This document shows, piece after piece, positions 1 to 5,860 of a stretch of 32,207 bases of DNA. Every line of letters begins with the position of its first letter. The first letter of the stretch is position 1. This DNA comes from a virus: the UHGV virus genome UHGV-0183840, one strand, 5' to 3'. Made by a program: the position numbers.

Positions 1-3000
1 TTGTATTGTTTGTATTGTTTGTATTGTTTGTATTGTTTGTATTGTTTGTATTGTTTGTATTGTTTGTATTGTTTGTGGTTTTATCTTTTTTTTGGTTTGT
101 TTTTTTGCGTTGCTTAGAAATAAAGATTAATTAGAATCCTCCTGTTTTGAGTAGCGCGCAGGGACAAGAGGGATGGCCCCCTTAAGGGGAGGTGTTTAAA
201 GTTCGCGGGATTTTGGTTATGAACGATAAGGAATTAATTGCTGCGCTTTCTGTACCTGGTAATTATGAAGTAATAGTTCTTGAGAATGGTGAATTTATCG
301 TAATGCCATTGCCATCCGATGTTATTCTGATCACCAAAGAATCGCATGCGGATTCGGTCAGTCACTTCAGCATTAAGAAAGACTAGATTATAATACTGTA
401 GTTAAAGCCAGCCTGAACAACTGGCGTCTGTCGCACCATTACGAGGATAGTAGTGGTGCATTACAAGAAAATTAACAATTCTGATAATTCAGCCGTCTTT
501 GCCAGCAGGCACGGGCGGTGTTCTCACACATTCAAATATGACTGGTATCAGCATGACCCCTGCACTGAAGAACAGGCCGAATGGCTGATTCAGAACTACC
601 GCAGACGTGGGTATGAGTTTAGGAAAGCCCTCAGCCTCGATTATCGTCACTGGATAATCTACGTCAGACTCCCTTATTCCGAACGCCCACCGCGTCCGTC
701 CCGCACATTCCAGCAACGCATCTGGAGGTAACGTGCGGGTATTGCTTCGACCTGTTCCGGTACCGGAACTTGGGCTGGTGGTGCTAAAGCCGGGCCGTGA
801 ATCCATGCAGGTATTTCATAACCCTCGAGTGCTGGTGGAGCCGGAACCGAAAAGCATGCGTGGTCTGCCGTCCGGAGTTGTTCCTGCCGTTCGCCAGCCG
901 CTGGCGGAAGATAAATCATTACTGCCATTTTTCAGCGATGAGCGGGTGATTCATGCTGCTGGCGGCGCTGGTGCACTGTCTGACTGGTTGTTGCGTCATG
1001 TCAATTCCTGCCAGTGGCCTCATGGTGATTACCATCACAGCGAAACCGTCATACATCGTTACGGCACCGGCGCGATGGTGTTGTGCTGGCACTGCGACAA
1101 CCAGCTGCGTGACCAGACCTCCGAATCACTCGGGCAACTTGCTCACCAAAACCTGTCAGCATGGATGATTGACGTCATACGCTATGCAATGAATGGCACG
1201 CAGGAGCGGGAATTATCGCTGGCTGAATTATCCTGGTGGGCGGTCTGCAATCAGGTGGCGGACGCGCTACCGGAGGCAGTATTACGTCGTTCTCTGGGGT
1301 TACGTGCTGAAAAAATTCGCTCGGTGTACCGCGAAAGTGACATCGTACCGGAAGAGCAGACCGCCACCAGCATACTGAAGCAGCGCACAAAAAATATTGC
1401 GCTACCGCATCACGTCCACCAGCAACAAAACCCGCCTCACAAAAAGACGGTGGTCTGCATCACTGTTGATCCGGAGTCTCCAGAATCTTTCATGAAACGA
1501 CCTAAACGTCGCCGTTGGGTCAATGAGAAATACACTCGCTGGGTAAAGACACAGCCGTGTTCGTGCTGTGGTAAGCCAGCTGACGATCCCCATCACCTGA
1601 TTGGTCATGCTCAGGGCGGAATGGGGACAAAAGCCCACGATATTTTCACGTTGCCGCTGTGTCGGGAACATCACAACGAGCTTCATGCTGATCCGCTGGC
1701 GTTCGAAGAAAAGCATGGTTCTCAGGTTGATTTGATTTTTCGTTTTCTTGATCACGCCTTTGCAACTGGTGTGCTCGGATAAAAGAGGTTACTGATGGGG
1801 ATTGAATTTGTTTTGCCTTACCCGCCGACGGTGAACACCTACTGGCGACGTCGTGGCAGTACATATTTTGTATCAAAAGCCGGTGAGTGTTATCGCCGGG
1901 ATGTGGCGCTAATTGTTCGCCAGCAGCGACTGAAATTAAACCTGTCCGGAAGGCTGGCGATAAAGATTATTGCAGAGCCACCGGATAAGCGCCGTCGTGA
2001 CCTGGACAATATTCTGAAAGCACCACTGGATGCACTGACACATGCGGGGCTGCTCATAGACGACGAGCAGTTCGATGAAATCAATATTGTGCGCGGCCTG
2101 CCCGTTCCCGGTGGTCGGCTGGGCGTGAAGATTTGCGAAATTAGAGGTGATAGTAATGGGGCGTGATATGTATGAGGTTTTAGACCGCTGGGGGGCATGG
2201 GCTGCAGCAGAAAATAGTGGTGTCGATTGGCAACCGATAGCAGCGGGCTTCAAGGGGCTTTTGCCACATGGTAAAAAGTCACGACTCCAATGCGATGATG
2301 ATGAAGGCATTATGATAGACGGTTGTGTTGCTCGTTTGCGGAAATATAAACCAGAAGAATATGAGTTGATTATTGCTCACTTTGTTATTGGTGTTTCTCT
2401 ACGCTCAATCGCGAAGAAACGCAGGTGCTCAGATGGAACTATAAGAAAGGAGCTGCAAACTGCATTAGGCTTTATTGATGGATGTAGATGCTTGATTCTA
2501 TCATAGCTATGGCTGTCACTACTCATTTACTTGAGCTTTCGATTCGGCGTCAGATAAAGCATCAATACGAATGTTTATGTTTTTTAATAGCTTGTTGTCT
2601 AGATCGATAAGACATTGGTTGTAGTGCGCAATTTGGTCTGGTGTTAGGTTAGGGTTGGCCAGGCAGTTCGTGATGAATTTTCTGGCCGTTTTTATTTCCC
2701 TTTTCATTCTTACATCATTAAGCGTAGGCAAACCTAGGTAAGCGATAAGAAGAATTACCACGTGAGATAAGCCGACAGCAGCTCCAGGCGCTAATGATTT
2801 GAAGAAGGCTAATTGAGGAAGCCAGTCAAAAAGGAAATTCAATCCCGCAGTGATAAGGGTGGTAAACCATGCCTGCATTGCCAGGTAGGATTTAGTGTTA
2901 GCCATTCACCTTCCTGCACTTGCTTCGTTGCGAGTTTTGAGTTCGCGTAACAGTAACGCCAACTGTTCTGCGTCATTTTCGTTTCTAACGCTGACTTTCC

Positions 3001-5860
3001 TTTTAGCGGTTCTGCCTTCAGGATCGGTGTAGGTTAGTTCAATGTACGCATTCGGCTTTACCCAAACCAAGAACCTAAGCACAGCATATCTGACCATCGC
3101 TGCGACAGCCATGAATACAGTGATGTAAAGCATAATGCTTAGGATTGACATGATTTAAAGTAGTTTCCTATCTGCCGCCGCTCTGTGGCGTATAACCTTA
3201 GTAATACTATAGCGTGGTTTAGACAGCGCGCCATTTGTTTCTTTTGTTGTTTCTGTCAGTTCTACAACAAAAAGATCACCCTTACAGAATGCTGCTTGGT
3301 TGTGTTCAACCCGTTCAAGAAAAGCCTCATCTTTCATAGATGCGCTAACTTCTTCGCCATTTGGCAGGATGATATCCCAGCTTTTGCCTTGCTTGAATCG
3401 AACATTAGCAAAATGTACATTAGCTTGGCGTGTCGTTACGTGCGTTTTCTCGACAAAGGTGGATTTTGCAGTTTTAAAACTTGCTGCTTCAGCTTGCGTC
3501 ACCCTGACTACCTTATGCTTCTGCTGTGAAACTGAGAACGTGGATGGTTTTTCAGTCTGCAGGGGTTTATAGATTAATTTATCCAGTTCTTTTCGGATGA
3601 TTGGACTGGTTATTAATTTTTGAATGTCGTTACTGCATTTAACCTTCTCACCATCCACTTCGATTTCTGCTGTATCTTTTTGTTCATCGACGACAATGGA
3701 GCTGATTTTACGCCCTTTGAGCCATTCGATTATCCCGAGTACGCCGCCTGCGGCAACTCCACCACCAGCAACGAGGCCAAGAGCGTTAATAGTTTTTATG
3801 CTTCCCATCACAGCAACAAGCAAAGTAAATGAACCTTCTTTTGTTGCCTTGATGTTGACTTTCGGCTCTGCTGTTTCGCCATTAATTATTTTTTCGGCAT
3901 GTTCAATCAGGGCACTAAGAGAGGTTAAGGCTTCGCCTAATGTTTTGGCGTCGATCTGATTATCTGCGTATGCCTCTCCACCGTAGGCAATTTCGATTTC
4001 TGTTATTGGCATGTTTTCGAGCTGCTGTGCCATCAAAAGCATCCTTTGCGAAAGATAAATAGCCACAGGATACAGATAATTATGAAAAAATCACTAACGC
4101 GTACGCAAAAAATATCTTAATCTGTTAAGAGTGGTTACTTCGCCACACAGCTTAAACCCGCCGCCGGGCGTTTTTTCTATACCTGAAAAACGGCACAGGA
4201 CGTTAAATGCGCTGGTGGTTGCGAATACCGGTCTTTCAGCTTGCTGGCTTTTTCGACAAGAGTTATTGGTATGTCACGTTAACCGGAAAAGGGAAAAGAC
4301 ATGCTAAAACAGCAGGATATGACTGAAACCGCCAGAGTGGTATTTAATGAATTAAGCGTCACCGAACCGGCGACCGTCGGGGAAATTGCGCAGAATACTT
4401 ACCTTTCACGCGAACGCTGTCAGTTAATACTGACCCAGCTTGTTATGGCGGGTCTGGCAGATTATCAGTTCGGTTGTTACAGACGCCTTCCTCAGTGAAG
4501 GCTTTTTTATTTGTGGTAATGTGCGGCTGGTGGGTGTTAGCGGCACCTGCCAGCCATCTGCTCATGCGTTGGGGTCACAAGCAAACCTCAGGCCCATCTG
4601 CTTTGCGCAAAAGCGGTATGAGCCTATCAGAGAAGTGCTTATTGATCTATGGTTAATACTGTAAAAATATCCAGTTGTGAGTTAATCAACGCTGATTGCC
4701 TGGAATTTATCCAGACCTTGCCGGAAAACTCTGTCGATCTGATAGTCACAGACCCGCCATACTTTAAAGTGAAGCCCGAAGGCTGGGATAACCAGTGGAA
4801 GGGCGACAATGATTACCTGAAATGGCTGGACCAGTGTCTGGCACAATTCTGGCGTGTATTAAAGCCAACCGGAAGCCTTTACCTGTTCTGTGGTCATCGC
4901 CTGGCGTCTGATATCGAAATCATGATGCGTGAACGCTTTAATGTGCTGAACCATATTATCTGGGCGAAGCCGTCCGGACGCTGGAATGGCTGTAACAAGG
5001 AAAGCCTGCGGGCGTATTTCCCGGCAACAGAGCGCATTCTGTTTGCCGAACATTATCAGGGGCCATATCAGCCGAAACATGACGGCTATGCGGCAAAGGG
5101 GCGCGAGCTTAAACAGCACGTCATGGCCCCGCTGATTTCTTACTTTCGTGATGCGCGTGATTCACTGGGGGTAACATCGAAACAGATAGCGGAAGCCACC
5201 GGAAAGAAAAACATGGCGTCACACTGGTTTGGTACCAGTCAGTGGCAGTTGCCGAACGAGGGTGATTACAGAAAACTGCAGGTGTTATTTGCACGTGTAG
5301 CGGCAGAAAAGCATCAGCGCGGAGAACTGGAAAAACCACATCACCAGCTGGTCAGCGCATACAGTGAACTGAACCGGCAATATGCCAGCCTGCTGGCAGA
5401 GTACAAATCTTTACGGCGTTATTTTTCCGTATCGGCTGCTGTTCCTTATACGGATGTCTGGACGTACAAGCCTGTGCAGTATTATCCGGGCAAACATCCC
5501 TGTGAAAAACCAGCGGATATGTTACGTCAGATAATTACCGCCAGCAGTCGTCCGGGAGACTTGGTTGTCGACTTTTTTATGGGGTCAGGCTCCACAATTA
5601 AAGCCGCAATGACGCTGGGGCGTCGGGCAATTGGTGTGGAACTGGAAAAAGAGAGATTTAATCAAACTGTAACTGTAATAGAAAATAATCTTTAAACACG
5701 CTTTCTATTATTTATTAATTATTGAAACAATAAAAACATATGAGTATATTTACAAATATTGACATTGATTTTTATTGAAAAAATATCTTATCTCGTTAAT
5801 ATTCTCACCCAGTTCCGAGGGGGTATTGCTGGGACATTTTATTTTTCTTGAGGAACCATT

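Follow-up and report, generated by a model that had tools for sequence, protein, structure and literature searches.

Why would a lambdoid prophage carry a tightly packed set of three genes that runs against everything around it? The 32,207 nucleotides of virus genome UHGV-0183840 analysed here (the window) come from an E. coli-type lambdoid prophage. A preliminary description, made from the sequence by eye, had noticed a minus-strand cassette between the antiterminator gene Q and the late genes and had proposed it to be an undescribed accessory system for anti-phage defence or exclusion. All three open reading frames are present where they had been placed: gene A (3155..4033, minus strand, 292 amino acids), which is related to gp29 of MichelleMyBell (see below), gene B (2906..3151, minus strand, 81 amino acids) and gene C (2519..2905, minus strand), which encodes a membrane protein of 128 amino acids. 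Every substantial flanking gene is on the plus strand (DUF968, RusA, Q, wHTH, methylase, TerB, holin, endolysin and terminase). The translational coupling that had been proposed is equally evident: only 3 nucleotides separate the TAA stop of A from the ATG of B (TAAATCATG), and the stop of B overlaps the start of C in TGAATG, with AGGAAGG just before it. The left flank is Q itself (2147..2506, plus strand; Pfam Phage_antitermQ, 3e-45), which converges with gene C, leaving a gap of only 12 nucleotides between the two stops.

A, B and C are real genes rather than chance open reading frames: other genera have all three proteins in the same order, with identities that fall to about 25-35%. The largest protein had been given a length of 303 amino acids, counted from a GTG at 4066 (3155-4066), but the true start is almost certainly ATG 4033: the homologues of gene A have lengths of 288-292 amino acids, a Shine-Dalgarno sequence (AAGGA, 4046-4042) is found 8 nucleotides upstream of this ATG, and the GTG is not kept in other copies of the cassette. 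The impression that the region is AT-richer than the head and tail genes holds against the window as a whole (GC 0.432 versus 0.514, with an equally low GC in only 1.5% of windows of equal length), but the neighbouring Q gene is AT-rich too (0.444) and low GC is thus not specific to the cassette.

The cargo-specific insert (2507..4084, not assigned to a strand) is defined by the Q stop at 2506 on one side and, on the other, by the sequence that directly follows Q in relatives with no cassette: phage PPyecE_EH1910 has a homologue of the window from 4085 onward right after its Q stop. Further to the right is a piece of phage backbone, the Q-downstream leader (4122..4176, plus strand), which is near-identical in the window, PPyecE_EH1910 and phiP27 and contains a terminator-like hairpin (CCCG-CCGC-CGGG, 4157-4168) and a T-run (4171-4176). 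The leader has no Rfam family and a fold z-score of only -0.7; it marks the right boundary, is not part of the cargo and is probably the short late-promoter leader with its terminator. In Plesiomonas, a diverged version of the leader is found with the cassette at the cI site. The cassette is hence placed after Q, as first described, but precedes the leader and terminator downstream of Q and is not among the late genes proper.

The 5' region of the cassette (4034..4108, minus strand), delimited by its sequence and by conservation across copies, is promoter-like, with a -35 element TTGCGT (4108-4103), an 18-nucleotide spacer and a -10 element CATAAT (4084-4079) that reads TATAAT in other copies of the cassette; the palindrome GCGTACGC is found at 4106-4099. 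A consensus promoter scan did not call the cassette promoter, because the -35 element matches the consensus at only 3 of 6 positions. About 135 bp of the 5' region are kept across contexts (Q-site copies of E. coli, Leclercia and Salmonella, cI-site copies of Plesiomonas and metagenomic copies) and sequence further out is unrelated. These features suggest that the 5' region acts as the promoter of the cassette. The conserved upstream region is partly common to phages that have no cassette, and may be a recombination joint rather than a regulatory region.

The cassette occurs sporadically: 37 of 5,426 complete E. coli genomes have it, while its flanks are found in about 2,600. Copies with at least 90% identity are present in E. 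coli, Citrobacter, Klebsiella and Salmonella, and synteny of A, B and C extends to Enterobacterales, Orbaceae, Vibrio, Pseudomonas and one metagenomic contig. Three positions are used: the opposite strand after Q, the nin region (Buttiauxella) and the site directly downstream of cI (Plesiomonas), where the cassette is co-directional with the CI repressor gene and has the position of rexAB in λ. The site after Q also accommodates other cargo: strain HM670 has an AB5 toxin pair after the same Q allele and phiP27 has a GIY-YIG gene between Q and the common leader. Together with the conserved 5' region, this bears out the suggestion of accessory cargo at a hotspot: the three genes and a 5' region of their own make up a self-contained and horizontally mobile operon of prophage cargo, which unrelated lambdoid prophages carry at cargo or lysogeny positions.

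A different possibility is a lysogenic-conversion factor, whose target would be the physiology of the host (envelope stress, colonisation, colicin or antibiotic resistance) and not phages: in related prophages, the site downstream of Q holds virulence genes (AB5 toxin, stx) as cargo, and B and C are membrane proteins of no assigned function. However, profile searches connect A, B and C with no known conversion factor, and the sole experimentally characterised homologue is an anti-phage protein. Moreover, the family of A spans phages of Mycobacterium, Lactobacillus, Bifidobacterium, Vibrio and E. coli, a breadth of hosts that fits a phage-versus-phage role better than a role in one host niche. 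We regard a conversion factor as very improbable.

The preliminary description had recognised no family for any of the proteins and had called the system undescribed; this does not hold for A. Profile searches place it in a very large family (3,601 representatives) that includes gp29: A matches the PADLOC model PDLC05015 of the system PDC-S42 (2e-53, residues 22-299 aligned to profile positions 4-294 of 302) and NCBIfam NF053583 (226.2 bits, cut-off 60), and it also belongs to phrog_3243. RefSeq names the E. coli A protein after NF053583, a 'LAPAL motif-containing putative phage structural protein'. This family name, and the fact that the cassette often adjoins holin and endolysin genes, could indicate that the cassette serves the life cycle of the phage itself, as a structural component or in lysis (timing, antiholin, membrane remodelling). 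Yet the literal LAPAL motif is found in none of the 29 enterobacterial members, the window protein included; among 119 diverse family members, 22 have it near residue 25. In none of the loci examined is a gene of the A family part of a head or tail module. Most loci have the cassette upstream of the late leader, on the strand opposite the genes for late functions and lysis; elsewhere it is found in the immunity or nin region. It is also missing from nearly all relatives of the UHGV-0183840 prophage, and A is homologous to a defence protein that acts in the lysogenic state. All this leaves a life-cycle role with very little likelihood.

By sequence comparison, A is a full-length homologue of gp29 of MichelleMyBell. 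The prophage-mediated defence by MichelleMyBell gp29/gp30, named MMB_gp29_gp30 in DefenseFinder, reportedly goes back to Dedrick et al. 2017. Aligned with gp29 by hhalign, the A family reaches a probability of 96.9% (E 1.7e-10 over 270 columns) and an A profile of 119 sequences reaches 98.9% (E 2e-17 over 269 columns); pairwise BLASTP of A and gp29 gives an E-value of 1e-7 over 273 residues, and gp29 matches PDLC05015, the model also matched by A, with 1.6e-16. The Vibrio homologue carries a depositor's note that reads MMB_gp29_gp30__gp29. Both A and gp29 have about 290-310 amino acids, a KEGSF/KPGSF motif, a hydrophobic segment of small residues, an OB-fold C-terminus and a terminal HR motif. 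Both systems are prophage cargo or have a lysogeny position, with a large gene followed by a gene for a small membrane protein; the gp29 gene is positioned between the lysis genes and the integrase, and distant A homologues are neighbours of an integrase or a repressor gene in phages A2 and Bbif-1, in a Vibrio tectivirus-like phage and in MichelleMyBell. The PDC-S42 model, too, is matched by gp29, by ORF19 of Lactobacillus phage A2, by Bbif-1 and by the Vibrio and Pseudomonas homologues. PDC-S42 is itself a single-gene, unvalidated computational candidate with no mention found in the literature searched, and B and C are not part of it.

There are also differences. The identity between A and gp29 is only about 20-23%, and DefenseFinder surveys report gp29-gp30 in Actinobacteria only, whereas the cassette is proteobacterial. 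Gp30 is a single protein of 67 amino acids with two transmembrane segments, encoded by a gene that overlaps the 3' end of gp29; the cassette has B and C instead. Gp30 is needed in the mycobacterial system and is absent from the cassette, and the phenotype is known for the mycobacterial form alone.

The MichelleMyBell prophage reduces plating of phage Tweety by 4-5 logs; its defence is phage-specific and is met by a counter-defence gene in the target phage (PMC8549241). According to PMC6426606, the system resembles abortive infection, and adsorption and injection go ahead; gp29 has been described as toxic and as accompanied by the membrane protein gp30 (PMC11856565). As A is a full-length relative of gp29, a prophage-carried phage-defence module is the most likely function of the cassette; the anti-phage role that had been suggested thus gains support from homology to a protein of an experimentally demonstrated prophage defence. 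More specifically, we estimate a probability of about 60% that the cassette is a proteobacterial variant of the MichelleMyBell gp29/gp30-type prophage defence, expressed in the lysogen and of the abortive-infection type. Lysogenic expression is suggested by the orientation and context of the operon. What is known in this system is the family of A, and its novelty is in the partners, B and C in place of gp30.

The reported toxicity of gp29, with gp30 alongside, the tight translational coupling of the cassette genes and their mobile and sporadic nature would also suit an addiction module of the toxin-antitoxin type, with A as toxin and B/C as antidote, that retains the prophage or its cargo and has no dedicated role against phages. 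The strength and phage specificity of the MichelleMyBell defence and the counter-defence gene of its target argue against this, and the presence of A alone in some phages fits poorly with an obligate pair of toxin and antidote. We consider a pure addiction module quite unlikely; as many modules of this type are abortive-infection systems, it overlaps with the defence explanation.

B and C follow directly 3' of A, in this order, in every gammaproteobacterial locus examined. The N-terminal segment of B (phrog_27630, 7e-57; its gene has no PGAP annotation in RefSeq) is strongly hydrophobic (KD19 = 2.32), in agreement with the one N-terminal transmembrane segment assigned to the protein before, and B also has a charged soluble part of about 50 amino acids. 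For C (phrog_26468, 1e-88), two transmembrane segments and a charged tail had been described: the 66-residue charged helical tail and a strong segment at about 41-59 (2.08) are there, but the segment at about 8-28 is weak (KD19 1.32), so that two transmembrane segments are plausible but not firm. Neither protein has a match in PADLOC, NCBIfam or Pfam, and the likeness to a '2TM + 1TM + effector' system that had been noted corresponded to no named system. When B and C were aligned with gp30, hhalign returned probabilities of 0.8% and 0.2%; on sequence grounds they are co-inherited small membrane proteins unrelated to gp30, and partner roles are therefore not transferable from the mycobacterial system.

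SieA/SieB, Sie2009 and Charlie gp32 block incoming phages by exclusion and do not kill the cell. The cassette may act in the same manner at the envelope, with B and C in the inner membrane and docked A blocking DNA entry or another early step: two of its three proteins are small membrane proteins, its lysogeny and cargo positions are typical of sie genes, and Cluster N mycobacteriophages, too, have a membrane protein that acts by injection exclusion (PMC6426606). Against this, the MichelleMyBell system is described as Abi-like, with adsorption and injection proceeding, and gp29 as toxic, and the family has its conserved core in soluble A, a protein that phages A2 and Bbif-1 encode with no membrane partner at all. 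Exclusion without killing is unlikely in our view.

How might an abortive-infection system of the gp29 type work with these parts? A consists of an N-terminal α+β domain, a hydrophobic segment rich in Gly, Ala and Ser, a middle β/α region and a C-terminal OB fold. The Gly-rich segment that had been noticed in the large protein is present (GLVAGGGVAAGGVLGII, residues ~84-102, with GxxxGxxxG; KD19 = 1.97), and a G/A/S-rich hydrophobic segment is kept across the family (median 16-residue hydropathy of 1.59 versus 1.11 elsewhere); its hydropathy is only borderline for a transmembrane segment and AF2 models it with low confidence. In the lysogen, a promoter of the operon itself would drive its transcription, opposite in direction to the lytic genes, and A would be a latent toxic sensor-effector, restrained at the inner membrane by B and/or C by likeness to gp30, which accompanies toxic gp29. 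A product of an infecting phage would be sensed, probably via the OB-fold domain, and A released or activated; its Gly-zipper-like segment, alone or with B and C, would then compromise the membrane, so that the infection is aborted and the cell sacrificed. Sensing by the OB fold and membrane attack by the Gly-rich segment are both inferred.

A wider and distinctly more speculative idea, to which we give less than even odds, is that the gp29 family comprises pan-bacterial, prophage-borne Abi effectors with a single protein as conserved core, in which an OB-fold phage sensor is joined to a latent glycine-zipper element for membrane insertion. Small membrane proteins, non-homologous and specific to each lineage, would be interchangeable as its safety catches or as docking sites, with gp30 in actinophages, B and C in Proteobacteria and none in some phages of Firmicutes and Bifidobacterium. 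If so, a defence mechanism that has been unexplained since 2017 would gain its first genetically tractable model in the E. coli cassette.

Two other known systems were compared and rejected. RexA/RexB, Sbash gp30/31 and CarolAnn gp43/44 are, like the cassette, prophage-encoded sets of a soluble protein of about 280-300 amino acids and one or more small membrane proteins, and the RexAB model of abortive infection by depolarisation (PMC7542560) is an obvious analogy. A RexAB-type identity was dismissed, as the sequences are unrelated, neither the window protein nor the 29 and 119 family members give a DUF4747/RexA signal, and neither partner has the four transmembrane segments of RexB (B has one and C about two); Butters gp30, a proposed RexA-like protein, is also unrelated to A. 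EACC1 (Pfam PF19953; bioRxiv 10.1101/2025.11.14.688446) is a protease-activated pore-forming effector, and residues ~81-140 of A, which cover the hydrophobic segment and the β-strands after it, weakly match its toxic C-terminal part (profile positions 42-102) with 15.5-15.6 bits, under the Pfam gathering score of 23.6; the match is seen in 7 of the 29 enterobacterial members. Identity with EACC1 was rejected on this sub-threshold score, on the lack of matches at E <= 0.01 among the 119 diverse family members and on the absence of a protease gene next to the cassette in any locus examined. A is three times larger than EACC1, but the topological idea is similar, with N-terminal strands that pack on the strands after the hydrophobic segment.

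The three open reading frames of the cassette are located on the minus strand, exactly where the preliminary description had placed them, with B (81 aa) at 2906-3151 and C (128 aa) at 2519-2905, and the translational coupling described there is present at both junctions (TAA-ATC-ATG for A/B, AGGAAGG-TGAATG for B/C). The large protein had been read as 303 aa: an ORF of this length starting with GTG does exist (3155-4066), but homologues of A are 288-292 aa long, an AAGGA motif precedes the ATG at 4033 by 8 nt and GTG 4066 is not kept in other cassette copies. The true start of A is therefore almost certainly ATG 4033, resulting in a protein of 292 aa (3155-4033, minus strand; RefSeq WP_000193722.1). 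C, previously described with two trans-membrane domains, has one strong hydrophobic segment, while the other one is weak. The region is AT-richer, as had been suspected (GC content 0.432 versus 0.514 for the window, within the lowest 1.5% of stretches of equal length), but the Q gene has a similarly low GC content of 0.444.

None of the three proteins had been recognised at first sight; the family of A, however, is already contained in DefenseFinder (via gp29), PADLOC, PHROGs and NCBIfam, with conflicting labels. In profile searches, A matches PADLOC PDC-S42 ('phage defence candidate', 2e-53), PHROG 3243 (function unknown, 1e-94) and NCBIfam NF053583 ('LAPAL motif-containing putative phage structural protein', 5e-67), and Pfam returned sub-threshold matches only. 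A tblastn search of phage genomes identified full-length relatives (22-26% identity) in phages A2 of Lactobacillus and Bbif-1 of Bifidobacterium as well as in a small temperate phage of Vibrio, whose gene carries the depositor's note 'MMB_gp29_gp30__gp29'. When compared with gene 29 of mycobacteriophage MichelleMyBell (KF986246), the alignment of enterobacterial A proteins reaches a probability of 96.9% (hhalign, E 1.7e-10, 270 columns), a profile of 119 sequences reaches 98.9% (E 2e-17) and the pairwise BLASTP comparison of A with gp29 has an E-value of 1e-7 over 273 residues. Moreover, the PADLOC model matched by A is also matched by gp29 (1.6e-16) and by the proteins of A2, Bbif-1, Vibrio and Pseudomonas. 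Given the agreement between hhalign, BLASTP and the common PADLOC model, A is, judged by sequence, a member of the gp29 family.

The family is large, with 3,601 representatives in an exhaustive profile search with a cut-off of E <= 1e-3, of which 2,083 remain at E <= 1e-10, and nearly all of the 150 family matches listed are full-length (~280-320 aa). Among the prophages that carry the gp29 core are those of E. coli, Salmonella, Klebsiella, Vibrio, Pseudomonas, Lactobacillus and Bifidobacterium. The Vibrio phage 10N.286.45.F8_PE001, a temperate, tectivirus-like phage of 14.4 kb (Vinavirales), encodes a gp29-family protein next to its integrase, together with B-like and C-like partners; the family thus extends beyond tailed phages. 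A sequence search of the PDB gave no match, and the Foldseek matches among viral models were limited to one DUF6575 protein and phage proteins that are uncharacterised. A link to DUF6575, a domain found in one Vassallo PD system, was rejected, as there is neither a sequence tie nor a match to a PADLOC PD-* model, and kinship to RexA/DUF4747 or Butters gp30 gave no signal. Nothing relevant on PDC-S42, the LAPAL motif, DUF7946 or the accessions turned up in the literature searched.

Papers citing the original work on gp29/gp30 (Dedrick et al. 2017) describe a strong defence: with the MichelleMyBell prophage present, phage Tweety plates four to five orders of magnitude less efficiently, and Tweety gp54 acts as a tunable counter-defence (PMC8549241). 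The phenotype resembles abortive infection, as adsorption and injection proceed (PMC6426606); exclusion of superinfecting phages at the envelope is an unlikely reading of our membrane-protein cassette. Gp29 is described as toxic and gp30 as a putative membrane protein, with unknown mechanism (PMC11856565). A toxic protein encoded next to membrane partners could also be part of a toxin-antitoxin-like addiction module, an option that we consider less likely still. The homology of A to gp29 speaks for the anti-phage role that the preliminary description had thought likely, and we regard it as probable (about 60%) that the cassette as a whole is a gp29-type prophage defence module.

The NCBIfam name points to a different function, namely a role in the structure or lysis of the phage itself. 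However, the LAPAL motif is present in no enterobacterial family member and the A gene was found in no structural module among the loci examined; the RefSeq/NCBIfam name is therefore probably misleading for the subgroup of A, and a structural or lytic role appears very improbable. If the cassette does protect from coliphages, this would correct the name 'putative phage structural protein' in RefSeq.

A DefenseFinder survey reported gp29-gp30 exclusively in Actinobacteria (bioRxiv 10.1101/2023.03.30.534874), a restriction explained by the requirement for gp30 in the survey tools. MichelleMyBell gp30 is a single partner of 67 aa with two hydrophobic segments, encoded by a gene that overlaps the end of gene 29; the gammaproteobacterial form has a conserved B and C pair instead. 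B and C are not homologous to gp30 (hhalign probabilities of 0.8% and 0.2%, respectively) and have no match in PADLOC, NCBIfam or Pfam. In all gammaproteobacterial loci examined, A is followed by B-like and C-like genes: within this sample of loci, the arrangement was seen in E. coli, Leclercia, Salmonella, Plesiomonas, Buttiauxella and Morganella and, with ~26-29% identity in A, also in Orbaceae/Gilliamella, the Vibrio phage, Pseudomonas bohemica and a metagenomic contig. In Tatumella, B alone is visible after A, as the locus ends within the cassette. B proteins have 80-89 aa with an N-terminal trans-membrane domain and a conserved soluble part, and C proteins have 126-161 aa with a hydrophobic trans-membrane region and a charged helical tail. 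Both diverge faster than A (84% identity for A, 63% for B and 60% for C in one example), and phages A2 and Bbif-1 have no evident partner for A, which argues that A is the core of the putative system and that its membrane partners are lineage-specific.

Detection that depends on gp30 would miss the form with B and C. This conserved two-partner form of Gammaproteobacteria, a candidate defence system, appears to be new, as do the breadth of the predicted gp29 family beyond Actinobacteria and the link among the DefenseFinder, PADLOC, PHROG and NCBIfam labels. B is kept in different genera and forms a PHROG of its own, but is not called by PGAP in RefSeq records, which have a gap of exactly its size between two called genes (8608-8856 in locus L001, E. 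coli TUM1880, and likewise in L010); a defence of the cassette against coliphages, if real, would add the 81-aa gene to these records. In bee-gut Orbaceae/Gilliamella prophages (~7550-8600 in L017, L018, L046 and L049), the cassette lies directly next to the lysis genes, on their strand, and is co-directional with the genes that immediately follow it, encoding a three-TM protein of 137-142 aa and a lytic-transglycosylase-like protein.

The distribution of the cassette is that of cargo, as had been proposed: of 5,426 complete E. coli genomes, 37 have it and ~2,600 have its flanks, and unrelated lambdoid prophages with three different antiterminator families carry it at three different positions. 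Copies with at least 90% identity are found in E. coli, Citrobacter, Klebsiella and Salmonella. The first position is the interval from Q to the lysis genes, with the cassette on the opposite strand, the second is the nin region of a Buttiauxella prophage (co-directional) and the third, in Plesiomonas, is directly 3' of a CI-type repressor, also co-directional; this last position is that of rexA-rexB in λ. At the Q site, phiP27 has a GIY-YIG gene. E. coli O2:H1 HM670, which has the closest Q allele (97.7%), carries a toxin pair in place of the cassette (L055:5577-6863), consisting of a scabin-related ADP-ribosyltransferase and the binding subunit of a subtilase-family AB5 toxin. Toxin and putative defence cargo are thus exchanged at one and the same junction of this Q-proximal hotspot of lambdoid prophages. 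With a toxin at this site, host-directed lysogenic conversion could be considered for the cassette too, but we find it hardly probable next to a defence role.

The segment from 4085 rightward matches cassette-less Stx-type phages and phiP27, and in PPyecE_EH1910 its homologue begins right after the stop codon of Q. By this comparison, the insert specific to the cargo spans about 2507-4084. The segment is probably the Q-downstream leader of the phage. It contains a terminator-like hairpin with a T-run (4157-4176) and a stretch of ~55 nt (CTGTTAAGAGTGGTTACTTCGCCACACAGCTTAAACCCGCCGCC.GGCG with a T-run; 4122-4176, plus strand) that is near-identical after Q in Stx-type phages and phiP27; at the cI site of Plesiomonas, a diverged copy is found beside the cassette (compared loci: L057, ~1500-1660, and L002). 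The ~55-nt stretch may be a short late leader or terminator RNA of its Q family, and the shared segment may also serve as a mosaic recombination joint; the leader region matches no Rfam family and its fold is unremarkable. Upstream of ATG 4033, ~135 bp are common to all cassette contexts and the sequence beyond is unrelated. This conserved region has a TTGCGT-18 nt-CATAAT/TATAAT arrangement and a Shine-Dalgarno sequence, and the palindrome GCGTACGC overlies the -35 element. A scan for consensus promoters upstream of A found no site; we propose a cassette promoter from conservation only.

The AlphaFold2 model of A is confident (pLDDT 82.7, pTM 0.68) and has an N-terminal α+β unit, with strands of residues 10-76 and 112-134 around a helix-loop-helix, two helices, a β-hairpin and a C-terminal OB fold. 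The helix-loop-helix bears a hydrophobic Gly-rich segment (GVAAGGVLG, pattern GxxxGxxxG) that is of low confidence at residues 91-94. Such a hydrophobic segment rich in small residues is present family-wide (median best 16-residue hydropathy 1.59 versus 1.11 elsewhere, median uncharged run of 19 residues). Invariant or near-invariant residues in 119 diverse members include W219, F238, D235, G67, G86 and P157. A weak match to the toxic half of Pfam EACC1, a protease-activated pore former (bioRxiv 10.1101/2025.11.14.688446), spans the hydrophobic segment and the next strands; as it is sub-threshold in A and occurs in 7 of 29 close but none of 119 diverse members, homology was rejected and the likeness is a weak analogy at most.

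In a possible mechanism, the cassette would be transcribed in the lysogen from its own promoter, and A would be a toxic sensor-effector that stays latent, with B and/or C restraining or docking it at the inner membrane. An incoming phage component may be sensed via the OB fold, and the Gly-zipper-like element would then damage the membrane, causing abortive infection. The membrane attack itself is tentative, and clearly less likely than a defence role as such. Should the E. coli cassette act against coliphages, it would be a tractable system for the study of sensing and killing.

All substantial genes around the cassette are encoded on the plus strand. DUF968, RusA and antiterminator Q are on the left; upstream of this block, the window opens with a perfect 9-bp tandem repeat TTGTATTGT (1-76, 8.4 copies, 100% match), where the sequence is AT-rich (GC 0.37 over 1-500). 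On the right, between cassette and lysis genes, are a TrmB-like wHTH gene and an N6/N4 DNA methyltransferase gene (4301-5695), tRNA-Thr(TGT) and tRNA-Gly(TCC) (5861-6014) and a gene for a TerB-domain protein of 141 aa (6589-7014; Pfam TerB 4.9e-7), possibly another cargo or moron gene of the Q-to-lysis interval. The order of wHTH and methylase is the same in phiP27 and Stx-type phages, but the tRNAs differ. Holin, GH108 endolysin and λ-type terminase and portal follow. Packaging and portal genes of the λ type (Nu1, GpA, λ-family portal; 10047-14225, plus strand) occur in this prophage together with a contractile tail sheath (23713-25188, plus strand), and a Rha-family regulator gene is at the far end (31650-32207, minus strand).
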